Origin: Candidatus Lustribacter sp.
GTDB taxonomy: Bacteria > Vulcanimicrobiota > Vulcanimicrobiia > Vulcanimicrobiales > Vulcanimicrobiaceae
Assembly (NCBI GenBank): GCA_965277805.1
Contig: OZ255842.1
Span: 4,832,001 to 4,896,000 of the forward strand
Direction: 5' to 3'
DNA: 64,000 nt
Shown here: positions 15,910 to 44,910 of the stretch, piece after piece
How positions within the stretch are numbered: the first letter of the stretch is position 1
Layout of the letters: each line of letters opens with the position of its first letter
Position numbers and translations under genes: made by a program
The notes under the pieces: model-generated
Databases searched by the model: none
What the model was told of the DNA's origin: nothing
Seen by the model: only the letters and a program-made list of their open reading frames with translations

Positions 15910-16088
15910 ACGCCGCCGCCGCAAAGGCCAAGGGGTTCGCCACCGCCGCGTGCGGTTCTCTAGGCTGGCACGCATCGTGCATAGCCTGCAATTGGACGCA
16001 GCAGCCCGATCTGCGCCGGTACTACAGCGACGCTGCACGCGCGGCCCGCCTGCACAGCGCCCAACTGCACAAGGACACAAGCCGATGA
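15906..16088 (+). CDS. Small CxxC...H...H Zn-finger-like protein coupled to the recombinase
   Basis: WHASCIACNW...AARLHSAQLH; GTGA and ATGA overlaps at both ends. Confidence 0.5.
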   Translation: MNAAAAKAKGFATAACGSLGWHASCIACNWTQQPDLRRYYSDAARAARLHSAQLHKDTSR

Positions 16089-17062
16089 CCGCGCTGGCGA
16101 CAACGCTTGAACCAGCTGCGGCGATGCTGGCCATGATCCAAGATCTCGGCGAACGAGCGAACGATTACGCGACCGCATCGAAGGCCAGCAGCACACGACG
16201 GGCCTACGCGACCGATATGGCCGATTTCGGTGCCTTCGCGGGCTCCTGCGGAGCTGCTACCGTCCCGGCCGACTGGCAGCTCATCGCCGCCTACGCGACG
16301 CACATGGCCGACCGGGGCCTGTCTATCGCGACGATCCGCCGGCGCATGGTCGCGATCTCCCAGGCGCACAAAACCGCCGGCCTCGAGTCGCCTACCGCGA
16401 AGAAGGCCGTGCGCGATGTGGTCGCCGGCATCGCCCGCACCAAGGGCGTCCCGCCCCGGCGCAAAGACGCCCTGAGCGTCGACCTGCTGCGCAACGCTGT
16501 GCTGACCCTGGCTGACGACGACCTCAAGGCGAAGCGCGACCGTGCGATGGTACTCCTCGGGTTCGCGATCGCGGCGCGCCGGTCGGAGCTCGCGGCCCTC
16601 AACGTTGAGGATCTGCATTTCGATGCGCGCGGGCTCGTCGTGACGATCCGGCGGTCGAAAACGGACCAGGAGGGCGTCGGGGCCGAGATCGGCGTCCCGT
16701 ACGTCGACAACAAGGGCCTTTGCGCGGCGCGTGCGGTGCGCACGTGGCTGGACGCGGCCGTAGTCACCTCGGGTCCCGTGTTCCGCACCTTCAGCAAGGC
16801 ACGTGTGCTGCAGGCGAACCGTATCGATGGCGCGGACGTCGCGCGGCTCGTGAAGCGCGTCACCGGGCTCGCCGGGATTGCTGGTGACTTCGCCGGCCAC
16901 AGCCTGCGCGCGGGCTTCATCACTTCCGCGGCCTCAAGCGCCGGCGTTAGCGAGGTCGACATTATGCGCGTCAGCCGGCATAAGAGCGTAACCATCTTGC
17001 GCGGCTACGTGCGGCGCGCGACCGTTTTTGATAAGGCTCCGCTGACGTCGATCCTTGGATAG
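16085..17062 (+). CDS. Cre-like tyrosine recombinase
   Basis: STRRAY SAM-like N-domain; RRSEL, RRSKTDQ, GHSLRAG, RHKS...RGY catalytic residues; AAGGA RBS. Confidence 0.93.
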   Translation: MTALATTLEPAAAMLAMIQDLGERANDYATASKASSTRRAYATDMADFGAFAGSCGAATVPADWQLIAAYATHMADRGLSIATIRRRMVAISQAHKTAGLESPTAKKAVRDVVAGIARTKGVPPRRKDALSVDLLRNAVLTLADDDLKAKRDRAMVLLGFAIAARRSELAALNVEDLHFDARGLVVTIRRSKTDQEGVGAEIGVPYVDNKGLCAARAVRTWLDAAVVTSGPVFRTFSKARVLQANRIDGADVARLVKRVTGLAGIAGDFAGHSLRAGFITSAASSAGVSEVDIMRVSRHKSVTILRGYVRRATVFDKAPLTSILG

Positions 17063-17074
17063 CTGCGCTCGAAA

Positions 17075-17971
17075 TTACGGGTTGTTGGCTAACCAGTTGT
17101 CGACGGCAACAAGGAGATCGACGGCGATCGGCCGACCGGCAAGAAGTAACGTAGCGACGAGCTCACCGTCAAGCGGAAGCGCGGCGCCCGCGGAAACCCG
17201 AGGGGCGATCGCTGGCAAGTTGGCAATGGCTTCCACATAGTCGACGTCCACGATCCCAGAACGATGCACGAGCACTTGCCGGATGGCGTTCAATGCATCG
17301 AGGGTTGGATCGTTTAGCGGACCGAGAATGGCCTGCACATCGCCAAACGCATCTTTATATGCCCTCCGCGAGCCGCGCCGAGGGTCGCCCAATGAGTCGA
17401 AGCGGTACTTCTCACGGAGGAGTGTCCCCATGCGACCGGTCAGGTTGAAATTGTAACGGTGAAGTATTCCTAACGCCACCTGTTTTTGATCGTCTCCGCG
17501 CGGTGTGGAAGCTTTGCTGCCATTTAGGTTGGCAAGTATCTTTGGGTGCGAATTGAGCGCTTTTTCCCACAAGTCCGCTACAAGCGTCTCGAGTGTTGTC
17601 CACGATTGCACAAGAAGTGTCGAAAGAACACCTTCGACGCCGAGTTCGATCATCGAATGATACGACTGGACTGCCTGCCATTGCGCCAGCCCAATCCGAT
17701 AGAGATCCTCGACTGATGCCGGTGAAACAGGAACCTCTCCCGTGGCGGCTCGCCCTGCGTACATACTCGTCACGATCGTCTGAACAATCGCGTCGCCGCG
17801 CCACAAATTTTTAGTAGCTGCTTGGTAGACCGGCCGCAGTTCTGGCGTTTTCAACTGTTGGGCGAGCGGCTCTCCGCGCATCATCCATGGGATTAAGCCG
17901 GTGAGTTTGAAATCACGTTGTGGAACGGTGCTGTCCATCGCGTTTGCTTCCGCACAAAGAGAACGACCCAT
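17075..17971 (-). CDS. HEPN-motif protein
   Basis: Helical protein with Rx4H motif IRQVLVHRSGIVD. Confidence 0.55.
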   Translation of the reverse strand: MGRSLCAEANAMDSTVPQRDFKLTGLIPWMMRGEPLAQQLKTPELRPVYQAATKNLWRGDAIVQTIVTSMYAGRAATGEVPVSPASVEDLYRIGLAQWQAVQSYHSMIELGVEGVLSTLLVQSWTTLETLVADLWEKALNSHPKILANLNGSKASTPRGDDQKQVALGILHRYNFNLTGRMGTLLREKYRFDSLGDPRRGSRRAYKDAFGDVQAILGPLNDPTLDALNAIRQVLVHRSGIVDVDYVEAIANLPAIAPRVSAGAALPLDGELVATLLLAGRPIAVDLLVAVDNWLANNP

Positions 17972-17987
17972 TCGTTCAGTAGCAGGT

Positions 17988-18008
17988 TCGATAACCTCTC
18001 ATTATCGA
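17988..18008. repeat. lox/dif-like site
   Basis: TCGATAA-cctctca-TTATCGA, perfect 7-bp arms. Confidence 0.65.
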
Positions 18009-18301
18009 CCATGTCTGGGGACGGGACTTGCGGAGGCCGCCAGCAATGCACGCGCATGCGCCGCTGACCACTGCTCCCATAAATCTTTACAAATGCTACG
18101 ACGCGCGCCCTTGGGCATCCGTGCCTTATCGAGTTTTCATTTAATGATATATACAGCAAACAAAGAAAAGAAGACAGTGGCGAAATTTTCCTTTAAAACG
18201 AGGCATTTATGCTTAGTTACGGAGTTTTGCGCACCGATTGCGGAGCGATGCGAAATCGTATAGGCTTACCCAAACCTCAACCCCGCATCGACCAACAAAG
18301 C

Positions 18302-18333
18302 GGCCCCGCCGGCGCTTGAACACCGACGAGGCC
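18302..18333 (-). terminator. G-U-containing hairpin on minus strand (terminator or antisense RNA end)
   Basis: GGCCTCGTCGGTG-TTCAAG-CGCCGGCGGGGCC followed by GCTTTGTT. Confidence 0.55.
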
Positions 18334-18356
18334 AGTCATAGGAAGGATCACTCCAC

Positions 18357-18878
18357 ATGACAATGACCACTACGCTCATTGAGACCGCGAAACCCATAAT
18401 TTACAAAGAAACGAAACCGAAAGTTCACGTGTGGCCGAAGGTCACCGTTCGGGAAACGACCGATGCAGAGCGTGCTGAGGCACTTAGTGTCGGTACCAAG
18501 GCACTCGGCTCAACCGTCGACGCTGAAGAACACAAACTCCGGGCGCTTAAGGCCATGCTCAACGTAGCGCGTGCGGTTTCAGAAGATCCGAAAGCCTTGA
18601 ACGACGTCGGCGCCGTCATGACGTGGGCTGATGGCTTAGACGCGCTCGATCGCCACTATGACGAGTTCGGCGTCACGCAGGCCTTGATGGACCTCGGTGA
18701 AGCAGCGCGCGAAGCGGAGCAGCTCGCGATCGTGTCGGGCCATGCCATCTTTGCCGCAGGCGGAGACATGACCGATGGCGAGTTTGTGGCCACCCCCCGG
18801 ACCCATGTCGCCGAGCAGATCGCGAAATACGGCGCAGCAAAAACCACCACTGGCTACCGGAAAGCAAAGGTCCGCTAA
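18357..18878 (+). CDS. Hypothetical protein
   Basis: AGGAAGGA RBS, 173 aa ORF. Confidence 0.7.
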   Translation: MTMTTTLIETAKPIIYKETKPKVHVWPKVTVRETTDAERAEALSVGTKALGSTVDAEEHKLRALKAMLNVARAVSEDPKALNDVGAVMTWADGLDALDRHYDEFGVTQALMDLGEAAREAEQLAIVSGHAIFAAGGDMTDGEFVATPRTHVAEQIAKYGAAKTTTGYRKAKVR

Positions 18879-19043
18879 ATGCCGGCTGAGATCGACTACA
18901 ACCCGGGCGGCACGATCAAAACGATCTGGCTGGACGTCGACGCTGCCCCGTTCATCGACATCATGCTTGACTGTATCGAGCAGGCGGAAGCGCGCAAGAA
19001 AGTGAGTGCCGCTGACCCAAAATCGATTGCGACCCAACTGTAG
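18879..19043 (+). CDS. Small hypothetical protein (54 aa)
   Basis: TAAATG junction; MPAEIDYNPGGTIKTIWLDVD. Confidence 0.55.
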   Translation: MPAEIDYNPGGTIKTIWLDVDAAPFIDIMLDCIEQAEARKKVSAADPKSIATQL

Positions 19044-19180
19044 TGACCGGGCCCCTTGCACCGGTGGCAACTAACGTGCGCGATAACCAGATTGGCGGAG
19101 CGCGCCTAGTTCGGTTTACCGCTGGCCGCAATGAGACCTGCACGCGCGGCCGTCGGATCATCGCGCCCGTGGCGATCACA

Positions 19181-19414
19181 TCACGGAGAGGGGCGGCGCT
19201 GTTGCTCTTCGAGCATGCGGAGTCGACGTTCAATCGGCCATTTGCGAAAAGCAAAAACCATGAGCAGAATGATATTGATTGGGGATATAAATGTGAGCAT
19301 CGCGATAGTAGGATTGTAACCCGCCTTCGAGGCAATTCGCCAGCTCGCCGGTACAACAAGGCAGACGAAGATGAGCGTAACGACGATACCCGGTATCAAT
19401 TGAGCCGACACAAG
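19181..19414 (-). CDS. Small two-TM membrane protein
   Basis: WRIASKAGY...PINIILLMVFAFRKWP. Confidence 0.6.
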   Translation of the reverse strand, partial: LVSAQLIPGIVVTLIFVCLVVPASWRIASKAGYNPTIAMLTFISPINIILLMVFAFRKWPIERRLRMLEEQQRRPSP

Positions 19415-20187
19415 TGGTCCCTTTCTTAAAAACGGCATGCGCCACGTTGCGATCCTTTCTTGCGGCAGCTGGACGACTCCGGCCGCGTTGCATCCGCCGG
19501 GGCGATGCTGAACCGTCCCGCTCGGACTCATCGGCGTGTCATGGATTCGCCAACATCGCGTTGCAGACTGATCTATTGACCGTACGTTCGTCGTAAACTA
19601 GCGCGCGGTCGAACGTCACCCACCAGACTTTTTTATCGGCGGCGTCGACCTGGGCGTTCGCCGCTACTGCCGCTAAGGTGTGCTCGATAAAAGTGCACGA
19701 GGAGGCGAGCGACGCCGCGGCATTACGCGTAGCCCAAACCGCTCTATCGAACACGTCCGCGTATCTGAAGGTCCATCTCCGTAATGGGACGACCGAAACG
19801 GGAAGCGTGAACAATGGCCCGCTCGCCGCGAGCCAGAGTTCCTGGGCATGTGGATGGCCCGCACCTTTGCCGGCGCTCCGAACGGTACCACGAGAGTGAG
19901 CGGCACACGACGTCGTGGTGCGCAGCGCAATCCGAAAAAAGATGCGGTCACCGATAAGCGCGGATGCGCTACGACCCAATTGTGAGGATCGCCTCCGGAT
20001 CCCGGATCGTCGTTTGTTCACGGAGAGTAAAGCGAATCGACGTTTGGGGCCTCGGCGTGATCCTCATCACGCAACCCCTTTGACTTTTGGCGGATAACTG
20101 TAACGGAATCGCTTGAGCCGAAACTGCCCTCGATTTGATTTTGTAAACAGCCTAGCGCACGTACCACGAAATCGCTAAGGTCGTTCC

Positions 20188-20394
20188 ATGTTAATGTCAC
20201 TGAGAGAGCAGGGCACGCGCGTCAGCTCATGCCCGTATCCGACAAAAGCCGAGCGGGGTTGTAGGGCGGACATCGCGTGGTTTTGCGTGTCTTGCAAACG
20301 ATTTTCGTGCGGGATGCACGTGACCCGTCAGAGTGGCAACGTGGCATGCCGGCATTGCGCGCAGCAGTTACGTCGCCTGGGTGATCTAAATTGA
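20188..20394 (+). CDS. B-box-like Zn finger, paralogue 1
   Basis: C-x9-C-x5-W-x-C-x2-C-x4-C-x2-HVxR-x6-C-x2-C. Confidence 0.7.
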   Translation: MLMSLREQGTRVSSCPYPTKAERGCRADIAWFCVSCKRFSCGMHVTRQSGNVACRHCAQQLRRLGDLN

Positions 20395-20714
20395 TGGATG
20401 GGCCGTCCAATGTCGATCAACGGGCCGGGGGACAAAACACGGCTCGAGTTTACGATGCTGACCGTCGCGTGACCAAAGTAGAGTGCGCGGAAGCCACGAT
20501 GCGCGGTGAGGCCTGCCGAGCGATTCCGCGTTGGCGGTGCCAAGGATGCGATCGTAACACGTGCGCCGATCATGTCGTGAGGCTGGCTGCGGGACCGCTT
20601 TGCGCAATCTGTAAGCAGCCAGCGACTCCGCTAATGCGGCGCGGCATTTTCTCGCACCATACCGACGAGACAGCCACGGTATTCATGAACCCACCTCAAC
20701 GGCTTAGCCGATAA
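20391..20714 (+). CDS. B-box-like Zn finger, paralogue 2
   Basis: Same motif with identical spacing. Confidence 0.7.
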   Translation: MMDGPSNVDQRAGGQNTARVYDADRRVTKVECAEATMRGEACRAIPRWRCQGCDRNTCADHVVRLAAGPLCAICKQPATPLMRRGIFSHHTDETATVFMNPPQRLSR

Positions 20715-20719
20715 TTCCG

Positions 20720-20959
20720 ATGAAAATTCAAAGGAAGGCCGAACGGCGAAAGGAGCCGCCTCATTGCGCGCAGGTCAGCGCAAACCGAAAACATTGCAAG
20801 TCGATACCGGCCTGGCGTTGCGAAATGTGCGCGACGGTTTTGTGCGGTGTGCACGTCGTCAGGAACGAGTACCGCGCGAGTTGCCGGCTCTGTGGGAGCA
20901 ACGTGGTTCGCTTCAGTAAGCGCCTCGGCGAACGGCGGGCATCAATTTCGTTGCAGTGA
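20720..20959 (+). CDS. B-box-like Zn finger, paralogue 3
   Basis: Same motif with identical spacing. Confidence 0.7.
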   Translation: MKIQRKAERRKEPPHCAQVSANRKHCKSIPAWRCEMCATVLCGVHVVRNEYRASCRLCGSNVVRFSKRLGERRASISLQ

Positions 20960-21500
20960 CAGCGCCGGATGGTCCACTAGGTTTGCCCCGGCGCTTCGCG
21001 GAGACCAGTACCCGGGCGGGGGTAGAGCTACCCGCCGCGAAGGCGACCCGTCCGTGAACTTTCCGGCCTACGTGCACTTGGTAACCGACAAGATTCGCGA
21101 GGTCATGCCTGACGTAGCCCGGGTCGCGCACGGGCGCTGCGTGACGTGGTCGCGCGGTTCGCAATCACTCACGGTCGACGCCTCCGACAGCAAGACGTGG
21201 TGGGTGAGGTTCGACCGCGCGCTCGTGTACGATGAACGCCAGAACGTCGAGAGCGCCATTGTGATGGCGCAAAACGCAGTTGCGCACTTCACTTAGCGCG
21301 TTCGACGGCGCGGCGTGCGCGACAATAGCCGCGGAATATCGTCTCGACCAACGAGGCGTCCTCGTCGAGGATGAGGCCATGCGGTGCCGAGCGTGCGGGT
21401 TCTCATCGCGCCTACCCGGCACCCCGGTTTCCGCGTGGCGCCGTCGCAGTCCGGAAATCGAGCCGCCGGTAGTCGAGCTGTGTGAGATCTGCAACGCCGC
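20955..21500 (+). repeat. Repeat module A, copy 1
   Basis: 21054-21500 near-identical to 33171-33617; upstream leader diverged but alignable. Confidence 0.9.
21054..21296 (+). CDS. 80-aa hypothetical protein (module A)
   Basis: Same length and frame in both copies; WWVRFDRALVYDER. Confidence 0.7.
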   Translation: MNFPAYVHLVTDKIREVMPDVARVAHGRCVTWSRGSQSLTVDASDSKTWWVRFDRALVYDERQNVESAIVMAQNAVAHFT

Positions 21501-21762
21501 AGCCGAAACGTGTAGCACGGCGGAGCGGAGTTTAACAGGGGGCCGAGTCCGGAAAGCGTGTTCTATGGACAACGAAGCAGCGGACTCGGCGAAAAGCCCC
21601 GAAGCTCCGAACGGCGACTCGAAGAAGCCTCGCCAGTCACCTTACGGCCAGTCCGAAAACTACGGCTCCCCCGGCGGCGACGAGCCACCGGCAAGCACGG
21701 ACCCTGGAAGCGGCGCCGCCGGCGACGCGCGCGAGCGCGGTGAAGGTCCGGCGCCGTCGTAG
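21379..21762 (+). CDS. CxxC...CxxC Zn-ribbon protein with disordered tail
   Basis: MRCRACG...LCEIC; GAGG upstream; N-part duplicated at 33496. Confidence 0.45.
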   Translation: MRCRACGFSSRLPGTPVSAWRRRSPEIEPPVVELCEICNAAAETCSTAERSLTGGRVRKACSMDNEAADSAKSPEAPNGDSKKPRQSPYGQSENYGSPGGDEPPASTDPGSGAAGDARERGEGPAPS

Positions 21763-22009
21763 GGTGGCGCCGGCTGACGCATCCGAGAACGCAATCTTAA
21801 CTGGCAGAATGAGCAGGGGGCGATGCCGCGATGGGCAGCGAGCGACGAGTTGACGACGTGGATAGCCTATCCTCTGCACAGGGGGCGGGAAGTTGGTAGT
21901 TTCGAAGAGGTCCGACGTCTACAATGCGGGACGCCACGCGACGTCTTGATACGCGTAGGCGCAATTATGAGGTGATTTGAAAGCGCCCACCAATGCGCTC
22001 GAGGGCTAG

Positions 22010-22306
22010 TTAGAGACTCTCGAGAAACGCCTGGCGCTCGGCTCGACTTTTTCGGTATTCCTCTAGTCGTTCGGGCGAAGATTCCGTTTCCGCTAAACGC
22101 TTCTCGAATTCTAGCCATTTCTTCAGCTTCGGGTGTGTGAGGCGGAAGGCGGAGACTTCTTTACCGCAGCCTGCAATCTCTCGCGACTGCTGTGCTGCCT
22201 TCTCCTGAGCCCGAATATACAGTTGTCCGTCCTCCGGCCCGTCCACTTCGACAAGGGTCGCGTAATCGCGGCTGCCGCCACGATCGGTAACAATGAAGAA
22301 AGGCAC
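22010..22306 (-). CDS. Hypothetical protein
   Basis: 98 aa ORF with GAGGAG RBS. Confidence 0.6.
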   Translation of the reverse strand: MPFFIVTDRGGSRDYATLVEVDGPEDGQLYIRAQEKAAQQSREIAGCGKEVSAFRLTHPKLKKWLEFEKRLAETESSPERLEEYRKSRAERQAFLESL

Positions 22307-22324
22307 AGCTTATGCTCCTCGTAG

Positions 22325-22530
22325 TGACGTGTAGCCAGGAGATAGGGCGCCATAGGCGGAGAGTTGGGGTGGTTTGCAGCTCGCGAACGAACTCCTCGGG
22401 ACTGCGTTTGCCGATTTACGTCTGCGGGCGAACTCCTTGCAGTTGCCCCGCGCGTCTTCCACGATCAATCGTGCAATCGTCCGCCAGTGATTGAACTCTT
22501 TCTCATTGAGGCATTGGTCTAGGAAGCGCC
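22325..22530 (-). mobile_element. IS3-family right-end remnant (degenerate)
   Basis: GRFLDQCLNEKEF...ARLIVED; end TGACGTGTAGCC matches the 24755-24766 end. Confidence 0.75.
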
Positions 22531-23140
22531 CCTGGGACGACGCGATGTAGGCACTCTGGGTCGGTGTGCCCGGTCGACGAAGGGCAGCGACCTCGGCGAT
22601 CGCCCCCTGAAGGACGGTACGGCGAGGCCCAGCAATGTGCCACACCGTGGCTCGTAAGTGGAATCCCTCAAGATCTCAAAAAGACGAACCAGAACCTTAC
22701 CTACTATTGGGCAAGGATCTAAGTGCGGATGAAATCGCCGACATCATTCATCATTCTGTCCGCTCTGATGTTGGTGAAGCAGATTGACGAAACGCTGAGG
22801 CATCAGTTGTCCATATTTCCATAGCCGGGATTTGCAGTTGTGCCCGCGTGTGAGTCGTCAAGCTCGCTAGCCGTTGGTCCCGAAGCCTGACGAAAAACCA
22901 AATCACCGCACATTCTGTGACATTTTTCAGACCCGCTGTACCTCATTCTCAGTGACTTTTACGAGAGCGTGTCAACGGCTTTGAAACCGTCCATCGTTGA
23001 GAACTTCATACTTTTTTGAGGTTCGTCATCGATTTGACGCTTTCGGTGAGCAAGATGACGTCGGAGCCACAAGAACGGGCTTCGGCGCTGAATGGGGAGA
23101 AGAGTTACAGCCAACAGCGATTCCCGAGGTACAGGTTTTG

Positions 23141-24148
23141 ATGGCAGACATCGGTGATCTCAAACCATATGCCTTAAGGCAAATCTGGCAATTCGAGGAT
23201 CGGCACTTTACAGTTTGGTTATCTGACAATCTCGATCGGCTCGGGAGCGCCCTAAGCATGTCTCTCGAATTTCGAGAACGGGAGAAGGCCGTAGGGCCAT
23301 TTTCACTCGACATTCTCGCACATGACACGATTCGGGACCGTCTTGTGATCATCGAGAACCAACTCGAAGCGACTAATCACGACCACCTCGGGAAGCTGCT
23401 GACCTACGCGGCTGGACTTGATGCCAAGTCAGTTATCTGGGTCGCTCCAACCTTTCGTGATCAGCACCGCGCAGTGATCGATTGGCTCAATGCCCATACC
23501 GATGAAAACGTTGACTTTTTTGCCGTCGTGTTAGAGGCAGTCCAAATCGACAACTCCCGCCCTGCAGTCAACTTTAAGGTGGTCGCATTCCCGAATTCAT
23601 GGCAGAAGACGCTTAGCGATCAGCGAGCCGATATTCAATCCGATAATCGCGGCATTTTTTTCTACCAGTTCAATGAAGCACTCCTTTTGGAACTGCGCAC
23701 CATAGGCGGATTTAAAACGCTTCCCGCACCCTCCGCTCGATACGAGATGATCGTTGAACGAACAAATTGGGGGGTGCGGTATGGCACCGCATTTTCGCGT
23801 GACACATTACGCGTTGCCGCATGGATCGTCTCTACCGACCAACAGGCAAACAAAGACCTCTTCGAAGCGTTGAAGCAGGAGCGCACAGATCTCGACGCAG
23901 CAATCGGCCAGGAAATTACTTGGAACTATAATCCTGATCGCCTAGGACAGATTCTCGAAATAAGTCGGCCAGCTATTTCGCGAGGAAACATTGCAGATCT
24001 TTCCTCGACGATCAAATGGGCTGCGCAGACGCTCGTCAGTATGAGGGCCGCAGTGGAGCCGCGCCTTACGTCAATTGCTTCCTCGCTCAATAGCGGATAC
24101 CAGGATAACGAAAGATTCGAACACCAACTCGATCAACGCGGAGGCTGA
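23141..24148 (+). CDS. DUF4268-domain protein with N-terminal NucS-like PD-(D/E)xK nuclease
   Basis: FTVWL...LDILA...IIENQLEATNHDHLGKLLTYAAG. Confidence 0.8.
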   Translation: MADIGDLKPYALRQIWQFEDRHFTVWLSDNLDRLGSALSMSLEFREREKAVGPFSLDILAHDTIRDRLVIIENQLEATNHDHLGKLLTYAAGLDAKSVIWVAPTFRDQHRAVIDWLNAHTDENVDFFAVVLEAVQIDNSRPAVNFKVVAFPNSWQKTLSDQRADIQSDNRGIFFYQFNEALLLELRTIGGFKTLPAPSARYEMIVERTNWGVRYGTAFSRDTLRVAAWIVSTDQQANKDLFEALKQERTDLDAAIGQEITWNYNPDRLGQILEISRPAISRGNIADLSSTIKWAAQTLVSMRAAVEPRLTSIASSLNSGYQDNERFEHQLDQRGG

Positions 24149-24541
24149 TGTGGACAACAATGCGGCGATCTAGGGCTGCCTCAAAAGGTTTCTTCCCTGA
24201 AGCGACCGGCGCCGCCGGCGCAACGCACCATGGTAAATTGGGCCAAAGCGTTGCTACGCGATTATGAGCTAGCCGTAACCCGGGGTGGGCGACCCACCGG
24301 CATTGAACGCCCGCGCGCGAATCACGTGGCCGTCTCGCAGCAGACCCGTCGAAAATAAGCGCCGAGCCCGTTGACCCGAGCGGCGAGGCACGGAGGAGCG
24401 GGTACCGGGCTACATTCTGTCGACGCTGCTGTTGATAAACCAGATTGAGCGTTTAGACCGTGAGGCTTCGGGACCTACGAGCCGCCGCTTCAGTGTGCAT
24501 AAATAGTTCGTGTATCGTTTCGGTGTGCATTCGCCCAGACA

Positions 24542-35952: not shown

Positions 35953-35998
35953 GGGCCCGGCTGCGGTCGCAGAACTACGCAATCGTTCGGCTCTCGCT

Positions 35999-37360: not shown

Positions 37361-37370
37361 GATAGTGCAC

Positions 37371-37817
37371 ATGAGAAAACCGTGGTTCGTGCTTTGCGTG
37401 CTGATTGCGCTTGCAGGAGGCTATTCGGCCACCCGCGCGACTGAACAAACGATCGTAACATTCGACGGCGCGTGGTGGACGAGTCTTGACACTTCCCAGA
37501 AATATGCGGCCGTTGAGGGCATGATCGTGGGCTACCAAGCCGGTTATCAGCGCGGCGCTGGCAACGCGGTCGAATACATGTCTCCAAGCGAGGCGAAGGC
37601 GCAAGGTTTTCCCGCAGCTTTCAAGGCGTTTTCGGCGCGCGGTGCAGCGCTGTACCAGCGTGCTATGAATATGAACGATGCCGGATCCGATCGCACGTTT
37701 GGAACAATGACTAACGAACTCGATGCTTACTTCGTGAATCAGCCAACACGCGCCAAAGAACTCGTAGAGTACCGAGTTTGGTGCGCCATTACGAGCGGAG
37801 CGCACTGTAAACAATAA
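37371..37817 (+). CDS. Secreted helical protein (loosely Rap1a/Tai-like)
   Basis: Signal peptide; DGAWWTSL...K, RTFGT; paralogue at 24909..25370. Confidence 0.65.
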   Translation: MRKPWFVLCVLIALAGGYSATRATEQTIVTFDGAWWTSLDTSQKYAAVEGMIVGYQAGYQRGAGNAVEYMSPSEAKAQGFPAAFKAFSARGAALYQRAMNMNDAGSDRTFGTMTNELDAYFVNQPTRAKELVEYRVWCAITSGAHCKQ

Positions 37818-37973
37818 TCTCCGGTTCTCGGCCACGCAAGCGATCCAACGATACCGTCGCGAGGAGGTGGCCGCTTGCAAGTGCTAGCCAGGCCAACTCG
37901 GACGCGCACTTGAAGCCGCATGTTCGGAACAAATTAAGAAACGATCTGTCGGCAATTCAATCTGGAGAAGCAC

Positions 37974-38999
37974 ATGGGAATCGTTGAACCGCTCAAATTG
38001 AGCGTCACCTATGCGTTCGTAAGGTCGCGACAACTTGACGGAACATACCCTGGTAATGATCAAACTGGCGTTTGGATGCCAACTGATTTGCGAATCCGCG
38101 CTGGTTGGGGGAAGGTGTTCGAAAGTGATTGGCCGCGTTCATCTCTTGCCAACTGGCCTCCCGCTGAACCCCCCGGTCTCGACGTTAAAGCTCAGAAGCT
38201 CAGATCTCTATATTATCAACGAGTGCGCGATATTGATGATGCACGCTCAACATTGGATCATCACGGACCGTTCGCCGCGGCGTTCGATATTGGACTAGCG
38301 TGGTTCAAATACACTGACGGTATAATAAGCACAACCCCCGATCCTCTCGAAAAAAAAGAGGCTCACGCTGTTATGATCATCGATTATGATGATACAAACC
38401 AGTGTCTGCGCGTTCGCAATTCGTGGGGCACAGGTTGGGGAGAAGCTGGTTATGCGAATTTGGCATATAGCGTCTTTTCGTCGACAATGACCGATGCTTG
38501 GACGATCTCTGCCGAGACACCGGAGGATATATGGGCCCCTTCGAGCGCGAACAAGTCGTGCGTCAAAACCTGGGGTATGCCTACCATGTCAAGAGGCAAA
38601 GCTGTGCATGGGATCGATTTGGTTGCGGCAACGGGTGAACGGAATGGCTGGGCGTTCGTTGTAGAGCGCGACGACGTTTTAGACGTCGAGGAATTTTTTA
38701 TACGTCCGCCCCAGCGACGCCGCGGATTGGGCAAAAGCTTGTTGGCCGAATGTCTCGACCTCAGCAATAGGAAAGGGCTGCCGTTGAGATTTTTGGTAAC
38801 ACACGCGGATTACTTGACTTCAAACCTCGCCGCGATGCGCGCTCTATTTGCAGCCTCCGGCTACGCCATGCACTCAAGTCCGCTCCAGTATGCCTCCGCG
38901 ATTTTCGAAGCAGGTAACCCGGCCACCGGTCTGGCCGCTGGCAACGTGCGTCCATCAGGATTGCCTCCGCGCCCGGCATATCTTTCGCAAGTTCGATAA
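37974..38999 (+). CDS. Papain-like C1 peptidase (N-terminally truncated) fused to GNAT
   Basis: HAVMIIDYD, RNSWGTGWGEAGY; FIRPPQRRRGLGKSL acetyl-CoA motif. Confidence 0.8.
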   Translation: MGIVEPLKLSVTYAFVRSRQLDGTYPGNDQTGVWMPTDLRIRAGWGKVFESDWPRSSLANWPPAEPPGLDVKAQKLRSLYYQRVRDIDDARSTLDHHGPFAAAFDIGLAWFKYTDGIISTTPDPLEKKEAHAVMIIDYDDTNQCLRVRNSWGTGWGEAGYANLAYSVFSSTMTDAWTISAETPEDIWAPSSANKSCVKTWGMPTMSRGKAVHGIDLVAATGERNGWAFVVERDDVLDVEEFFIRPPQRRRGLGKSLLAECLDLSNRKGLPLRFLVTHADYLTSNLAAMRALFAASGYAMHSSPLQYASAIFEAGNPATGLAAGNVRPSGLPPRPAYLSQVR

Positions 39000-39161
39000 C
39001 AATGTTTCGCGCGTTCTTGACGAGCGCGGCGTGCCGCCGGCGGAGTAGGGTTGGACGCCTGTGCCGTGCCGGGAAGCCTCTAATATCCAATGCCCTGAGG
39101 TCACGAGGAACAGCGAGCCGTTTGCGCAGACAGGACCGATCGACCTACGCTGTCCAGCGTG

Positions 39162-39539
39162 TCAGGTGCTATGCGACTTGCCCTTCGGCGGAATCGCGCT
39201 TTCGACGACGAGCACCCCCCTGCTGTCGGCGGTGATCACATGGCCGTCTTGCCGTATTGCGCCGATGATCACGGCCGGACCGTCCGTGTGCTCGACCTCC
39301 TCGATCTGGACCGGCTCGTCGACACCATTGTAGCCGTGCTCATTGTAGGCGAAGACCTCGCCATCGTCGTCCTTGGATTTCATGTTATCCCCCTCGAATT
39401 TATAGGTACCCGGCGCCGGCATGAAGATCACTTCCGGACGCAAGAAAGACATGGTCACCCGCTCCGCGGCAGCGGCGCGCCTCGCGATGGCCTGCGCCTG
39501 CGCGTCGACCGGGTCCGGCGGTATTACTGGTCGCGCCAT
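39162..39539 (-). CDS. Hypothetical protein
   Basis: 125 aa protein-like ORF. Confidence 0.55.
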   Translation of the reverse strand: MARPVIPPDPVDAQAQAIARRAAAAERVTMSFLRPEVIFMPAPGTYKFEGDNMKSKDDDGEVFAYNEHGYNGVDEPVQIEEVEHTDGPAVIIGAIRQDGHVITADSRGVLVVESAIPPKGKSHST

Positions 39540-39660
39540 GCCATGACGTTCAGCAAAAAATTCGCCTAATCGGGCGCGCGCTGTCGTATGGACGACCGTC
39601 GCTCGGCCTGCTAGGATTAGGCCCCATCTTTAGGCGTTTGCTCGGAGGTGTGTGCGGCAC

Positions 39661-39954
39661 ATGGACTCGCTCTACCTAACTGTCACGTCGCAGGGAGAAC
39701 GCTTTGTTGCGACGAGTGCGGCGCCGCGCATCTGTTCGCTCGGAGCGTCGCCTGAACAAGCCACTGAGAGCGCCCGGCTCGTGGCCCTTGCCATGTTTGG
39801 CGGCGGACCGCGCCCGGCCATGCTCATCGACCGGATCACGCAGCCCGGGCTTTCGACGCTCGTCATGCAACCGCTCGAAAAACCGTTCACCATCGGGAGC
39901 ATAGTACAGAAGGTCGGCTGGCGTTATATGGCGTCCGTTCCTGGCCGGGTTTGA
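39661..39954 (+). CDS. HicB-N-like small protein
   Basis: GGAGG RBS; FVAT....ICSLGASPEQA..SA pattern. Confidence 0.4.
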   Translation: MDSLYLTVTSQGERFVATSAAPRICSLGASPEQATESARLVALAMFGGGPRPAMLIDRITQPGLSTLVMQPLEKPFTIGSIVQKVGWRYMASVPGRV

Positions 39955-39967
39955 AGCTGGCTCAGTA

Positions 39968-40156
39968 GTGGACGTGATGGTGCTGTGCCGGTGCGGGCAC
40001 CCCTCCGGTCTGCATACCGAAAACGGCTGTCGCGCCGGCCGATATCAGCCTTGTCCCTGCATGTTGGATTCACGTTTAGCAATGGAGACCGCAGTCGCGG
40101 CCGTGCGAGTACCGTCACGGAAAGAATCGGTCAGCAACACGATAACGGGCAAGTGA
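39968..40156 (+). CDS. Small Cys/His-rich protein
   Basis: CRCGH...H...GC......CPC. Confidence 0.5.
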   Translation: MDVMVLCRCGHPSGLHTENGCRAGRYQPCPCMLDSRLAMETAVAAVRVPSRKESVSNTITGK

Positions 40157-40550
40157 GGTCATGGAGTTTTTGGCCTGGCGGTACACTGAACGGCTAGGTA
40201 TGCGCATTTCGATGTCGTCGAATTCTAGCCACGATATGGCCTTGCATTGGCCGTGCGGTTGCGCGCTTCAGGGAACACGGGAGACGACCGTGTACGTGCC
40301 GTGCGAGACGCATGAGCGGCGTCCGATATAGCGCCTGCCGCATTCAGCGAAGTCAAGTGAAGACGCTTAAAGCATGGCCAATGCAACATTCGTCAAGCCC
40401 GTCGACTGGCGACTGAACGGCGTCCCGCACCCAATTGGACAGTTGTTTTCGTTCCACTAGGGACGCAAATCACACATCGTGTAAATGTTCGTACCCTGTC
40501 GCTTGCAGCTCGTCACAATTGAGTAAACCCCCCTGCGCTAGCAAGAAATC

Positions 40551-40760
40551 ATGATAGGCTGGCTCCATGATAGCCGTGAGTGCGTAGTGCGCGTGGCCTG
40601 CTCGTATCTAACGATACGTGGTGAGCCCTGCAAGGCCGCCGCTTGCTGGATGTGCCCAAATTGTAAACGAGTAGCCTGCGGCACACACGTACAGCGGCAA
40701 GGCGGCGGTGGCCGCTGTTTGAATTGCAAAAACACTGTTCAGCGGTTGTATGCAGACTAA
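40551..40760 (+). CDS. B-box-like Zn finger, paralogue 4
   Basis: Same motif and spacing as the 20188-20959 trio. Confidence 0.7.
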   Translation: MIGWLHDSRECVVRVACSYLTIRGEPCKAAACWMCPNCKRVACGTHVQRQGGGGRCLNCKNTVQRLYAD

Positions 40761-40840
40761 CGGGCATGCATTTTCGGACGGCGTCTGAGCACCCTCGGTG
40801 CAACCGACGAGGTTTAAGCTCATTCGTTAGTGCGCACCGT

Positions 40841-40863
40841 GTTCGATATTAGAGGCTTATCGG
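40841..40863 (-). repeat. lox/dif-like site, inverted copy
   Basis: TCGATAT-tagaggc-TTATCGG. Confidence 0.8.
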
Positions 40864-40870
40864 ACTCGTG

Positions 40871-41098
40871 CTAATACGTTTTCTTCTTGGTTTGCACCGG
40901 GTTGGGGTGCTCTGTCGGCGCCGGGGTCGGCGCATGCGTTGATTCCACTACAGGCCCGCCGATATGGACGTACGGCTTTGCGAGATCCCATGCTGGCATT
41001 TCAATAAGGGCAAGAACACCGAGGACAATGGCGACTATCCAGCCCGTTCTACCGTCTTTGTTCTTCGCGAGCGTCTCGAGGTTCCCCCATTGTAACAC
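40871..41098 (-). CDS. Small single-TM protein
   Basis: GWIVAIVLGVLALI plus Pro/Thr tail. Confidence 0.5.
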   Translation of the reverse strand: MLQWGNLETLAKNKDGRTGWIVAIVLGVLALIEMPAWDLAKPYVHIGGPVVESTHAPTPAPTEHPNPVQTKKKTY

Positions 41099-41253
41099 TT
41101 TACTAAAACGGACGTCTGGCTAAATGTTACAGAGCGCGCTTACGACTGTGTTGTCATCAGGCGATGCGGAAGTTCCCCCCGATAATTGGAGACCCAAAGG
41201 TGCGGGCCGGCCAGATCAATGGGTGCGCTGGCTACATGCTCGGGGGCCATTAT

Positions 41254-42537
41254 CTAGGTCTTCTGGCCTAGCAAATGCTCAATTTCCAATCGGCGCTGCG
41301 CTGTCGGCGGAAATGCTTCGTCAGAATCCATAACGCGAAGAATCTGAATCATCGGTCGATCTTCATCTGTTGCGAAGATATCGTCATTTCGCGCGGTATC
41401 GTTATCACCCGAAGTAGAGAGGACCGCCGCGACTCGGTTTGAGCCTGGATCATAAAATCCATAGAAGCGTTGGAACGGACAAGCATGTGGTTCGCATTCA
41501 TCGAAAATAACATATTGGCGACCATTTTGATCCACGAGCAGTTTTAGAGTCGATGCAACTCCGCCCGCGCCTTCTATCCATCGCGCTGACTTGCCGCGAG
41601 AAGTTCGCTCGGCGTCTTTAACGGCAGCGTTGAATGCGGAAGCGAACTTTGGATCACGGCGGTATAAGTCAAACGCATACGTAGAACCCGAGAGTGACGT
41701 CCCATCAAAGCTCGCGGGAAGCACTCCCGCTCTGAGCCCGAGAAAAAGCCGCTGGGCGGTTTCGATGTCGCTGACTTTCGGTTGCGTCGATTGAGTTTGT
41801 TGCGGCGCTGCCACCGGCGTGCCGGATGACCCGCTGAGATCCTTAGCTGCGTTGATTTCAACCGCAAGCCGATCATGCAAGTCCGACATCCGGCTCCATA
41901 TGCTATCCCACTGTGAACGACTTGCAGCCTCCTGTTCGTCCGAGGTCCTGTAAAGCGCAGCGACGTCCTCACTCGACCGATAAAATTGATGATTAACACT
42001 TGCGGCGACGCTGTCGTCGATGTCGCTAGCAGCGCGCAGCCAGTCGGAGAGACCCGTACCTTCTGCTTGGGATGCGGCGGAAATGTCAGCAATCAACGAC
42101 GACGTAGTTGCTTCACCGAAGTGGTCGCCTAAGGCAGTAGCCGCACCCCGCGCAGCATTCGCCTTCGCTTCTGAAAGCGCTCCGAGCTGTTCGACATCAT
42201 CCTTTTCGGTATTAATGTATCCGAGAATGTCCGCGTCGTCGCCCGGAGTTTTACTGTAGAGGTCGTGACGCTGTTGGCTCGCTTCCTCAGCATCCATTAG
42301 GACTTTGTCGTATTGATCTTTTGACGAAGAAAACTGCGCAAGTGTCGCATCGATGCGAGAGCCTAGCGCGCTTAGGCTTCGAAAATTCGCTAAGGCTACA
42401 GCTTGAGCCGCGGCGATGCGTGCTCGGTCCGCCGCGGCTGCGACATCGCGTTGGTGTTTTTCTACTCCGAACACTACGCCCGCACCGACAATGCAAATTA
42501 AGAAGACAAGGCCGAGGACAGTCCCTACCCGCTTCAT
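41254..42537 (-). CDS. Membrane-anchored coiled-coil protein with C-terminal Ivy-like lysozyme inhibitor domain
   Basis: N-terminal TM; WIEGAGG...YVIFDECEPHACPFQR resembles Ivy CKPHDC loop. Confidence 0.7.
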   Translation of the reverse strand: MKRVGTVLGLVFLICIVGAGVVFGVEKHQRDVAAAADRARIAAAQAVALANFRSLSALGSRIDATLAQFSSSKDQYDKVLMDAEEASQQRHDLYSKTPGDDADILGYINTEKDDVEQLGALSEAKANAARGAATALGDHFGEATTSSLIADISAASQAEGTGLSDWLRAASDIDDSVAASVNHQFYRSSEDVAALYRTSDEQEAASRSQWDSIWSRMSDLHDRLAVEINAAKDLSGSSGTPVAAPQQTQSTQPKVSDIETAQRLFLGLRAGVLPASFDGTSLSGSTYAFDLYRRDPKFASAFNAAVKDAERTSRGKSARWIEGAGGVASTLKLLVDQNGRQYVIFDECEPHACPFQRFYGFYDPGSNRVAAVLSTSGDNDTARNDDIFATDEDRPMIQILRVMDSDEAFPPTAQRRLEIEHLLGQKT

Positions 42538-42927
42538 TTTGATAGCTTCTTCAGCGAGATAATCATCTCGGTACTCATGGAAGGTCGCCTCTCCCGGCGC
42601 GCAGCGCCTGACAGAGGGTGCGTCGGTGAAGCGCTCTGACTCCTGCTTGCCCGATCATATCCAAGCTTCACGCTGTCGAAGGAACGTGTTGCCGAGCTTA
42701 GGCCGGATGTCGACGGACAGCTAGTCGGCGAGGCCAACAACGTTCGTTTCTCTTTTTTCTTCCAGCCGACCGGAAAGTGCCGCAACTCACGAGCTTCGGC
42801 TCCGTGCGTCCGCGAATCGCCTTGGTGACCCCGATGCGTTCGAGCTCCTCGGCGGTGCTCACGCCGTCGTCGAAGCAGCCAACGGTCGGCTGTGGACCGA
42901 CCTGCCTGTTTGCGCCACCTCATCCAT

Positions 42928-43239
42928 TCAGGGATCGTACGTCGCCGCGGCAAACGCAGTGCGCTCGCGGCGCTCGGCGTTGCTGAGGTGGTGGCACCAT
43001 AATTCAGCGACCACGCTCGGGTCGTCTTCAAATGGAACAAAGTCAACCGCGATCACGACGAAGCTGTCTTGGCCACCGCCATCTTCCGCCGGGATATGCA
43101 GTTCTTTGCGATGCTCGTCGGACAGCTCAATGTTAACAAATTCACCGACGCATGGAACTCGCTCAAACGTTTGTTCGAGATTCATAACCCGCGTTAGAGT
43201 CTGCGTCGGACCGTAGAGATGAACAAAGACTGATCTCAT
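42928..43239 (-). CDS. Hypothetical protein directly after terL
   Basis: TGAATG junction. Confidence 0.6.
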   Translation of the reverse strand: MRSVFVHLYGPTQTLTRVMNLEQTFERVPCVGEFVNIELSDEHRKELHIPAEDGGGQDSFVVIAVDFVPFEDDPSVVAELWCHHLSNAERRERTAFAAATYDP

Positions 43240-44505
43240 TCAGAAGCCTTTCGAATTTCCGCGCGTCATCAACACGCCGTAGCAGAATGTATCGAGCAGA
43301 TCTAGGCCGTCGCTCGCTTTGGAACCCACGCGGAAGTTCGTCACCTGTTTGATGAGGTGGTTGGCCGAGATACGCTTGTGGACTTTCGTCTTGTTGTAGG
43401 CGCGATCGGTGATCTTCACGTCGCCGGCATAGACGTACGGGCTCGCTGCAATCGCTCTTTCGTCTTTACCTAGAGCGGTAAGCTTTGAGTCGATCGCATG
43501 TGCCGGCCAGCCAGCATTGCGCGCCTGCTGCAGAAGCACGATGCCCGTGCCCTTTTCCTCAATCAGGGCGCCCGCCGAACCGTTCCGCGCCCCGCAGATC
43601 CGCGCAAGATCCTCGCACCGCTGAAAGATGGTCGGGAGCCAATTCGCCTGATCGGCCCCTTCGATAGACAGGACATCCCAATCGAGGATGAGCGTTTGCG
43701 GGTGCGTCAGGCTGTTGTAGCTCCACCACGTTACGCCGGTGGAGTTGTGCTCGGTGCCGCTCTTAATCGCCGTGTCGACCGTCGCGAGCACCACATCGCA
43801 GCGATCGGGGAACGGAGCGGGAGCCCCATTAATGAGCAGCGAGTCCAACGGGAAGAACGCAACGCCCGACCAGTCGACGAACTCGGCGAGGTACTCTTGC
43901 CGGTAGACCTCTGGTGAGTTTTCGAGTTCGAGCTTGGCGACCTCATCGGCGGGCAGGTAGGGATTCGTCGACGTCGGGGCGTGGAACTCGACGAACTCGC
44001 TCTGCGGGTCGTTGCAGATTGTGTAGAACCAGTTATCTTCGTCCTTGCCGGCGGGCGTAGAGAACACCCAACCAACCCCCCCGAAGTCGAGCAGCGTCGG
44101 CTTGATCGACTTGGACCAGATCTCTTCCATCTCGGGACCAGCGAACGCAGCTTCGTCAATCATGACGCCGTGATAATGGCGAGAGCGACCGGCGCGCTTG
44201 TTATTGAGCGTCCAGAAATCGACGCGCCCCCCGCCCGTGCAGCGAATGACCCCATCGATTTTCGAAGCCGAAATCGTGATCGGGTCAAGGATCTCGAAAA
44301 TCTCGCGATAGGTCTCGGACGTGATCTTGTAATCGGGAGCGAAAAGGCCCCATGATTCGCCGCGGGCAACGCGATCGCAAATGATCGTTGAGGCCATCGC
44401 CGTCTTGCCCCAGCGCCGCCCGCACCGGATGACCTTATATCGGCCCAGCACCCTCCACGCATCGATCTGGCCGCTATGCAGCTGCGGCAGCGTTATTGTG
44501 GGAAT
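43240..44505 (-). CDS. terL: Terminase large subunit
   Basis: CGRRWGKT Walker A, VMIDEAAF Walker B, FSTP, nuclease VDTA...DLLD; start apparently ATT. Confidence 0.9.
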   Translation of the reverse strand: MPTITLPQLHSGQIDAWRVLGRYKVIRCGRRWGKTAMASTIICDRVARGESWGLFAPDYKITSETYREIFEILDPITISASKIDGVIRCTGGGRVDFWTLNNKRAGRSRHYHGVMIDEAAFAGPEMEEIWSKSIKPTLLDFGGVGWVFSTPAGKDEDNWFYTICNDPQSEFVEFHAPTSTNPYLPADEVAKLELENSPEVYRQEYLAEFVDWSGVAFFPLDSLLINGAPAPFPDRCDVVLATVDTAIKSGTEHNSTGVTWWSYNSLTHPQTLILDWDVLSIEGADQANWLPTIFQRCEDLARICGARNGSAGALIEEKGTGIVLLQQARNAGWPAHAIDSKLTALGKDERAIAASPYVYAGDVKITDRAYNKTKVHKRISANHLIKQVTNFRVGSKASDGLDLLDTFCYGVLMTRGNSKGF

Positions 44506-44876
44506 TCGGGCAGTCCCCCGACGATTGTGATTTTCACGTCGGAAGGGACCGCATCGGCCTTCGGCGGCCCATAGAACTCGCGGAAGCGGCGCTCGAGCAC
44601 CCAGGTGGCCTGAGACGATCCGGTACCGCCCTCGAGCGCCTTGCAATGGAGATGGACTCCGCCACGCGCGACAGCGCGCATGATCCGATCGGCAAAATCC
44701 GGATACTGTTCTATCCAACGGTGAGCGGTGCTGCGGCTGACCCCCTCCGCCTCCGCAGCGAGAGCGACCGGCACGCCAAGCTCGAGATGGGCGCAAATCG
44801 CCTTCGCGATCGCTGGATCGACTTTCGCCTTTGGCGGTCGGCCGACGGGGCGGACTGTTTTCGGTCGTTCGCTCAT
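44493..44876 (-). CDS. terS: Terminase small subunit (HTH)
   Basis: GRPPK, AAEAEGVSRSTAHRW, WVLERRF; overlaps terL. Confidence 0.75.
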   Translation of the reverse strand: MSERPKTVRPVGRPPKAKVDPAIAKAICAHLELGVPVALAAEAEGVSRSTAHRWIEQYPDFADRIMRAVARGGVHLHCKALEGGTGSSQATWVLERRFREFYGPPKADAVPSDVKITIVGGLPEFPQ

Positions 44877-44889
44877 GTGAATTGCGTGC

Positions 44890-44910
44890 CTGATAATGGG
44901 TGGTTATCGA
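44890..44910. repeat. lox/dif-like site
   Basis: CTGATAA-tgggtgg-TTATCGA. Confidence 0.55.

Follow-up and report, generated by a model that had tools for sequence, protein, structure and literature searches.

A Cre-like recombinase and a multiplied set of putative lox-type sites in an integrated island of Candidatus Lustribacter

Cre-type recombinases are known as one-enzyme, one-site modules. Integrons carry co-oriented promoterless cassettes next to intI and attI, with attC sites that are long imperfect palindromes, and in shufflons a single gene has a cluster of inverted sites within it or at its 3' end, where inversion yields protein variants. In SPbeta, according to PMC10516654, the serine recombinase SprA integrates the element. 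The master repressor there is MrpR, a protein with the tyrosine-recombinase fold that is closest to Cre, and it binds promoter regions at 10 dispersed SPBRE sites. We analyzed a window of 64,000 nucleotides (G000:C1:4832001-4896000) from the 5.53 Mb genome of Candidatus Lustribacter sp. (64.3% GC, hereafter G000), in which an integrated island encodes an intact Cre-like tyrosine recombinase and carries dispersed copies of a short two-armed motif. Our results partly support a lox-type system with a multiplied set of sites within a serine-integrase island, for which shuffling, regulation and leftovers are all live readings.

The motif has the form YCGATAA-N7-TTATCGR. When compared to the reference pattern TCGATAA-N7-TTATCGA, the copy at position 17988 of the window has no mismatch, the one at 35930 has one, those at 40843 and 44890 have two each, and the one at 24879 has three (sites are named by their first position; Table 1). 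Overall, 11 matches with at most two mismatches to the consensus are detectable in the whole genome, and 4 of them lie within the island. This count is independent of the position weight matrix (PWM) that we used in parallel, a half-site matrix built from 9 sites with these 4 strong island sites included. With the PWM, the island holds 4 of the 6 genome matches scoring at least 22 and 5 of the 14 scoring at least 17, so that the motif is enriched in the element over the chromosome, as the proposal of an earlier note on this DNA requires. The island matches occur only at a spacer of 7, and spacers of 0-6 and 8-15 give none. All island sites are intergenic and kilobases apart, and no gene is split by any of them. 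A search for a canonical dif in G000 returned no clear site.

An AT-rich palindrome may be commoner in foreign DNA of lower GC, as the island is, and half-sites are indeed 3-fold enriched there. However, 2000 first-order Markov simulations, which preserve the dinucleotide make-up of the island, gave a mean of 0.0025 matches at a score of at least 22, where 4 are observed, and of 0.067 at a score of at least 17 (maxima 1 and 2, respectively). Low-GC 1 kb windows elsewhere in the genome (383 kb) returned 0.097 matches per 37 kb at a score of at least 22. The specificity for one spacer length and the recurrence of the motif beside recombinase homologues in other genomes also argue against a compositional origin, which is effectively refuted for the strong copies and retains almost no probability. 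The enrichment of the strong copies is real and beyond chance. Weak matches are a different matter, since the background at the score of 30747 (9.0) is 2.8 matches per 37 kb of low-GC DNA and this copy has no core in common with any other, which places it at chance level. The recurrent motif described by the earlier note thus holds for 17988, 35930, 40843 and 44890, for the more divergent 24879 and for the decayed copies 37811 and 39069, and fails for 30747. Its observation that stop codons lie at or near sites agrees with our annotation of the open reading frames (ORFs) 37365-37817, 30764-30985, 24577-24885 and 40871-41098.

The island recombinase is intact and Cre-like, as first proposed. 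When we searched the PDB with it, 17 of the 18 matches were Cre or Cre-derived proteins (best E 2.1e-10 over residues 60-311), and the sole Xer-like match reached 8.3e-4. Its catalytic residues R165, K192, H272, R275, H299 and Y308 are all present and align to Cre R173, K201, H289, R292, W315 and Y324 (Cre numbering from Table 3 of PMC10516654). Of 25 homologues at 40-82% identity, 22 have the complete R-K-H-R-H-Y hexad; two G021 copies carry Q in place of the second His, and the third exception is a G034 pseudogene. Among the NCBIfam models, XerC/XerD score 48-49 bits against cut-offs of 330-335, and the XerA/integron-integrase model, with its cut-off of 220, reaches 38.3 bits. The gene is single-copy in G000 (one genome match at E <= 0.001), and two loci in other genomes encode recombinases with 82% and 74% identity. 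A scan of genome contigs with this single protein returned same-genus loci and a distant Magnetococcales metagenome-assembled genome only. In viral contigs the single-protein scan gave nothing, and an alignment of homologues used as the query gave 238 of 256 candidate stretches that encode relatives. Homologues are also present in 1734 plasmid records.

We then looked at whether motif and recombinase occur together in other genomes. In G014, whose recombinase is 58% identical, all six genome matches (at most 1 mismatch of 12) lie on the recombinase contig, five of them within 12 kb of the gene. Both zero-mismatch matches of G002 are 4.8 and 7.2 kb from its two recombinase homologues, and G277 (61% identical) has a site 38 nt upstream of the gene. 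In relatives, the site generally lies 24-105 bp upstream of the recombinase gene or directly downstream of it. The association extends to viruses: in 80 viral loci (1.37 Mb), found with the alignment of homologues, matches with a PWM score of at least 18 number 19 at spacer 6, 8 at spacer 7 and 0-3 at the other spacers tested. The viral consensus is tgtCCGATAA-N6/7-TTATCGGaca, typically beside the recombinase gene (at most 300 bp upstream in 9 loci, directly downstream in others). Lastly, three Cre-like genes lie within 62 kb of the Shewanella plasmid NC_008573.1 (255706-265601), each with its own CGATAA/TTATCG-type palindrome closely upstream.

The same plasmid hosts SloxP, which we located at 260253-260276, between two of the Cre-like genes and 3.5 and 4.2 kb away from them. 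The plasmid gene nearest to the island recombinase (37% identity) is distinct from the Cre orthologue (E 9.4e-40 to Cre), which is about 23% identical to the island recombinase, a low similarity. This orthologue is presumably SCre. The arms of our motif equal those of SloxM1 (CTCGTGTCCGATA ACTGTAAT TATCGGACACGAG) as printed in PMC3082901, a site that, according to that paper, SCre recombines in E. coli and human cells. This likeness to a proven site, together with the association across loci, leads us to conclude that (G)TYCGATAA-N7-TTATCGR(AC), of 21-25 bp, is the predicted cognate lox-type target of the island recombinase family, as the lox-type architecture proposed in the earlier note implied, and the recombinase very probably binds these sites.

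Some results speak against a tight link between recombinase and motif. No enrichment is seen at ten loci whose homologues are 45-55% identical (1 match in 174 kb downstream versus 2 in 200 kb upstream), and 17 further stretches (171 kb) contain three motif matches only. In addition, across the genomes of relatives the 12-base motif is no more frequent than a reversed-pattern control, and clustering alone is striking. In 9 distant loci, a de novo search recovered no recurrent perfect palindrome.

The sites might instead be bound by a DNA-binding protein that we missed, with the recombinase as a bystander. Small or fast-evolving helix-turn-helix proteins could escape our search for proteins shared among motif loci (ORFs of at least 40 aa, E 1e-4), and the conserved small ORF at the left end of the island, 15655-15909, has no Pfam, NCBIfam or PHROG match. 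However, G004 C32 has a homologue of this ORF and no motif site, so that the ORF does not track the motif. The only protein common to the motif loci G000, G002 C2, G002 C3, G014 and G277 is the recombinase, the same motif stands beside its homologues in viral contigs and on a gammaproteobacterial plasmid, and the motif equals a proven lox arm. We regard a missed protein as very improbable.

A conserved palindrome of another kind, ACGGAAGGnTGAnTTCCGATG, lies over the ribosome-binding site (RBS) and start codon of the recombinase gene in a clade with 53-55% identity (L027, L033, L041, L052, L037 and L055, upstream of the homologues of G208, G204, G158, G189, G199 and G206). It may be a translational or autoregulatory element. 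We considered CGGAA-N7-TTCCG as another dispersed array around this clade and rejected it as a conserved palindrome over the RBS and gene start that forms no array. On the G014 contig, an 83 nt element with two hairpins ending in a T run (L020 18926-19008, that is, G014:C61:58926-59008) has no tRNA or Rfam match; it is 90-93% identical in 8 of 8 genomes of that genus and occurs twice in some.

The island sites fall into classes according to their cores. Class A (gcctcta) includes 35930 (+), 39069 (+) and 40843 (-), which have AAGCCTCTAATATC in common. Class B (ccggaga) includes 24879 (+) and 37811 (-), which have AACCGGAGATTA in common, and 37811 also has 15 nt in common with a site at genome position 2483906. 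Judging from these common cores of 12-15 nt, 37811 and 39069 are genuine relatives of the good copies with decayed arms. Sites 17988 (+) and 44890 (-) have cores that differ by 2 nt and are mutually inverted, and they bracket the whole cargo. The closest correspondence is between 35931-35952 and 40841-40862, which form a perfect inverted repeat (22 of 22 nt complementary) with 4888 nt between the arms.

G000 has 3 exact copies of the 17 nt class A core, distributed over two loci. We found no exact copy in 250 other genomes of the family (two-mismatch matches, 6 versus 13 for the reversed control), and the contigs that a metagenome scan returned, 3 in number and of low GC, are unrelated and do not resemble the window. 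The second locus is a low-GC islet (0.55-0.58) at G000:C1:2482000-2489000, 2.4 Mb away, with three further motif sites at L002 9831, 9906 and 13205 (the islet is L002 8000-15000). One of these sites is of class A, one is of class B, 75 bp away from it and inverted, and one has the spacer gtcgcta; the adjacent inverted sites show additional similarity in their flanks (GGACGCGC..AAC). We found no recombinase in this islet. It also holds a truncated acyltransferase and an FG-GAP protein.

Flanks of same-core sites are unrelated, and same-core duplicates are mostly decayed copies. That identical cores stand in flanks without mutual similarity, the 22 bp inverted pair among them, suggests past recombinase-driven rearrangement. 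Two other explanations of these sequences were discarded. The inverted pair does not look like transposon ends, with no transposase-like Pfam match among the ORFs tested inside it and no target duplication in the flanks. The purine-rich spacer is unlikely to act in RNA or as a Shine-Dalgarno sequence because 35930 and 40843 are mutually inverted and both precede minus-strand genes, with the spacer too distant from the ATG.

How could such an array have formed? The default of the family is one site beside the gene, occasionally two, as laid out in a multimer-resolution or cyclisation module of a replicon. Such a module would suit an island that excises with its serine integrase and brings along a primase, a helicase and a terminase. 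Here, however, the site has multiplied, with five usable and two decayed copies in the accessory region, plus three at the second islet. Sites with the same core in unrelated flanks would mark past recombinase-mediated events, either insertion of circles or inversion, after which one partner would often have decayed, and this decay would stabilise the inserts. Cre-type enzymes do not recombine productively sites with differing spacers, and present recombination would be possible only between partners with the same core. The clearest case is the inverted pair 35930/40843, which would be expected to flip the 4.9 kb between its sites; because the intact pair is inverted, this recombination would be harmless. 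The full proposal is that the motif is the cognate lox-type target and that the array arose via recombinase-mediated rearrangement and can still undergo it. We hold it tentatively, at somewhat less than an even chance.

Several observations weigh against rearrangement at the sites. The five sites of G014 have five different spacers, and spacers differ as well in the two-site viral loci; insertion predicts equal spacers at both ends of an insert, and such differences therefore do not fit the insertion model. In the class B pair, about 10 nt of further flank similarity (27 nt at 81%) is a hint that an old segmental duplication, and not an event at the sites, gave rise to it. No site lies at the ends of the 1.5 kb segment that the island and the second islet share, nor at those of its partial third copy, and the homology between G000 and G002 C2 ends at the recombinase stop and not at a site. 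These are the breakpoints that we were able to examine, three in all, and none coincides with a site as the earlier note had expected. Genus relatives yielded no cargo module in another setting, and none bounded by sites. G004 C32, which has the left-end ORF and a helicase, is too diverged for breakpoints, and the genus relatives of G014 have no cargo in common with it. The region is present in four public runs of one sample, as contigs only. These contigs bridge 35930 and 40843 in the reference orientation only and contain no joints, although rare isoforms could escape contigs. With most spacers differing, breakpoints off the sites and a single arrangement in contigs, the capture, excision and inversion of cargo modules that the earlier note had inferred did not find support, and an active platform of this kind is doubtful.

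The assembly graphs of all four runs break at 39917-39946, with depth rising to the right, because of a multi-copy gene family at window 39576-40075 (ORF 39652-39954). Copies of this family are 82-83% identical at G000 2038218 and 2107977 and also occur in G003.

A further difficulty for rearrangement is that most sites lie 5-60 nt upstream of start codons, a position that suits regulation equally well. The recombinase, irrespective of any remaining recombination at its primary site, might bind the dispersed sites and thereby repress genes of the island, terS-terL among them, and leave integration and excision to the serine integrase. SPbeta provides a precedent with the same layout (PMC10516654). 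Nine listed sites are found at this distance from start codons, several without a Shine-Dalgarno sequence in between, and one is 13 nt before terS. The perfect site 17988 follows the recombinase stop by 926 bp and precedes the ATG of 17075-17971 (-) by 16 nt. It lies in a divergent intergenic region, as does G014 52379. Sites directly upstream of the recombinase gene in G014, in G277, in 9 viral loci and on the Shewanella plasmid would suit autoregulation, and conserved arms with freely variable spacers are what a dimer operator would show. However, the island family keeps all six catalytic residues in 22 of 25 members, where MrpR has lost most of them (Table 3 of PMC10516654). Regulation also leaves unexplained the identical cores of 14-22 nt in unrelated flanks, which operator evolution would not produce, and a zero-mismatch site of G002 C3 lies between two convergent stops, not in a promoter region. 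The replication genes are preceded by no site. Promoter and terminator scans gave nothing at the sites, with counts at shuffle level; in particular, no sigma-70-like promoter was predicted at any of them, a weak test in this phylum. Overall, we consider a regulatory array rather unlikely.

Most copies could also be leftovers. One site, probably 17988, would work in resolution or cyclisation, and the rest would have been imported with pieces of related elements and would now be functionless. One or two sites per locus are usual, and five-site arrays were found only in G000 and G014 among about 120 loci examined. Of the 80 viral loci, 27 have a match at a score of at least 16 and none has more than two. 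Since arms are conserved family-wide while spacers differ between elements, the array looks as imports from different elements would. The cargo is patchy, repeat-rich and partly broken; 37811 and 39069 have decayed; the second islet has three sites and no recombinase; and some related genomes have several recombinase copies (4 in G199, 3 in G208). On the other hand, four copies are still 0-2 mismatches from the consensus amid decaying genes, all sites are intergenic, and we found no recombinase pseudogene remnants in G000. Moreover, the class A core is exclusive to G000 with its three exact copies, which points to local multiplication and not to import. This origin for the array seems unlikely.

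The boldest possibility is that the island is a lox-based cassette platform run by its own Cre-type recombinase, with circles that bear a family-type site being captured, inverted and lost again in the accessory region. Such a platform would build a variable store of defence and other cargo genes and be analogous to integrons or pdif modules, with one self-encoded Cre-like enzyme as its basis. As a variant, the catalytically intact Cre-type enzyme could double as a master repressor through the same sites, an evolutionary intermediate towards MrpR. We see this as speculative and improbable on present evidence.

The features of the island are listed in Table 1. Its span of about 15575-52827 is defined by matches on both sides of an uninterrupted comEC in G003 (G003:C4), where 157416-157958 aligns to window 15020-15574 and 157252-157424 aligns to 52828-53000, with 9 bp of overlap at the junctions. 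GC content is 0.51-0.60 in the island and 0.64 genome-wide. The serine integrase stands near the right junction, in agreement with the earlier claim that integration is separate from the tyrosine recombinase. From the right, the gene order is serine recombinase, primase and helicase, terS/terL, about 26 kb of cargo and, far left, the tyrosine recombinase. We recognised no capsid or tail gene among the island ORFs tested, and for this reason we consider the element a phage-like island and not a complete prophage. The cargo has the same low GC and contains mostly small ORFs without family matches (Pfam match in 0 of 10 tested), a partial Peptidase_C1 fused to GNAT (Pfam) and truncated repeat copies, so that its description as short, mixed-orientation and often broken genes is broadly correct. 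tRNA and Rfam scans of the window found nothing, and a megablast of 15-39 kb against plasmids gave no match.

Some neighbouring sequences deserve mention. The 298 aa protein encoded at 17075-17971 (-), between the recombinase and the perfect site 17988, has no family match; in the ESM Atlas it falls in unnamed clusters only, with one weak lead, HEPN_RiboL-PSP, at rank 30 (0.92). Tandem small paralogous ORFs of about 70-110 aa, with 28-41% mutual identity, occur at window 20179-20959 and 40542-40760, and in the second islet too. Outside the island, a large regulator of the STAND type (BTAD-AAA_16-TPR; 10690-14169, minus strand) is located beside the insertion site. Just past the 3' end of comEC, a 74 nt stretch (14878-14951) is 85-93% identical in G007, G004 and G003 and has a second place in G000 at 4910718-4910791, without tRNA or Rfam match.

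Table 1. Features of the island and its borders in the window
Feature	Coordinates	Strand	Evidence
comEC C-terminal fragment (ORF as listed; junction near 15575)	14966..15793	-	NCBIfam ComEC_Rec2, profile 503-662 of 663, E 1.9e-16
Integrated island in comEC, ~37.25 kb	15575..52827		G003 alignment and GC drop
Small conserved ORF, island left end	15655..15909	+	83% identity in G002 C2, 65-70% in G004 C32
Cre-like tyrosine recombinase, intact ORF	16085..17062	+	Pfam Phage_integrase 1.7e-12; PDB matches are Cre
Perfect-arm site, TCGATAA cctctca TTATCGA	17988..18008		PWM 28.4, maximum
1.5 kb segment, 92% identical to genome 2484762-2486258 (second islet); partial third copy 33115-33617	20012..21505	+	Ends without site
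Candidate anti-phage defence gene PDC-S11 (DUF4268)	22997..24148	+	PADLOC 3.7e-89; Pfam DUF4268
Class B site, spacer ccggaga, right arm decayed	24879..24899	+	PWM 17.3
Schlafen AlbA_2 domain protein	27904..28587	-	Pfam
Claimed degenerate site, chance level	30747..30767	-	PWM 9.0, no shared core
Class A site, spacer gcctcta, 60 nt upstream of 35519-35869 (-)	35930..35950	+	PWM 25.5
Small gene family 'X'; copies 31599-32039 (-), fragment 25367-25458; also G002 C2; no Pfam match	36534..36926	+	Repeat/homology search
Class B site, both arms decayed; stop codon of 37365-37817 within one arm	37811..37831	-	Shared core
Class A site, both arms decayed	39069..39089	+	Shared core
Class A site, 19 nt upstream of 40608-40823 (-)	40843..40863	-	PWM 24.1
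Terminase large subunit (terL), longest ORF; true start probably further downstream	43240..44949	-	Pfam Terminase_6N 4.5e-6; phrog_2 4.3e-33
Terminase small subunit (terS)	44493..44876	-	PHROG 4102, 3.8e-9
Site with core 2 nt off 17988 and inverted to it; 13 nt upstream of terS	44890..44910	-	PWM 23.9
AAA_25 / DnaB-like replicative helicase	47869..49317	-	Family profile matches
Primase (Toprim-type) fragment or domain	49304..49762	-	Family profile matches
Large serine recombinase (island integrase), right junction 37 bp away	51316..52791	-	Pfam Resolvase, Recombinase, Zn_ribbon_recom; phrog_95 3.3e-53
comEC N-terminal part, broken within metallo-beta-lactamase domain	52810..54525	-	Pfam Competence 1.3e-46; Lactamase_B profile 2-56 of 196 only

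A non-exhaustive literature search turned up no account of a self-encoded Cre-like enzyme that serves an array of lox-type sites. If the array shuffles cargo, it would represent a simple new way to capture and invert genes as modules, distinct from integrons and Xer/pdif. If it regulates, mobile elements would have turned a recombinase into a global regulator at least twice independently. On either reading, (G)TYCGATAA-N6/7-TTATCGR(AC) is the predicted native target for a large and little-studied Cre-like clade (238 viral stretches and 1734 plasmid records with homologues), and orthogonal lox systems have been developed from enzyme-target pairs of this sort.

When compared with the known systems, the island differs from the shufflon (Rci/sfx) in that its sites lie between genes and far apart and split none of them. 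It resembles an integron in that a tyrosine recombinase borders a series of short ORFs with sites between them, and in that the cargo includes a candidate defence gene. However, its sites are simple lox-type sites of 21-25 bp, its genes are in mixed orientation, and its recombinase matches the generic Xer and XerA/integron-integrase models only weakly (38-49 bits versus cut-offs of 220-335).

The likeness to the pdif modules of Acinetobacter plasmids (PMC6449649 and PMC7399989) is that an accessory region has several dif/lox-like sites spread over it, with gene modules between them. The pdif sites use the XerC/XerD pair of the host, whereas the island encodes its own single Cre-like enzyme. 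The spacing also differs, since pdif sites have a 6 bp spacer and the island has no spacer-6 matches; no rule of alternating orientation is seen; and we found no island cargo module that recurs elsewhere with sites at its ends. With MrpR/SPBRE, as presented in PMC10516654, the island shares an element with a serine integrase, a protein of the tyrosine-recombinase fold and dispersed intergenic sites. The arrays of G000 and G014 and the two-site locus G002 C2 all lie between the tyrosine and the serine recombinase, and this layout of tyrosine recombinase, sites and serine recombinase is therefore not confined to G000. The likeness rests on layout and fold, and we claim no sequence relationship. 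In the same source MrpR lacks most catalytic residues and does not recombine, whereas the hexad of the island enzyme is intact.

Cre/lox and SCre/SloxP differ from the island in several ways. There are several sites per element here and one there; 7-9 bp of the arms are conserved here, compared with 13 in lox sites; and the spacing between ATAA and TTAT is N7 here and N6 in SloxP, although it would count as a spacer of 9 bp if the arms were taken to end in ...GATA, as in lox notation. The host element here is an integrated island with a serine integrase and not a plasmid prophage. What these systems have in common with the island is a two-domain tyrosine recombinase with the full hexad, whose best solved relatives are Cre, and, near the gene, an inverted-repeat target whose spacer is short and asymmetric and whose arm core ...CCGATA(A) is that of SloxM1 as printed in PMC3082901.

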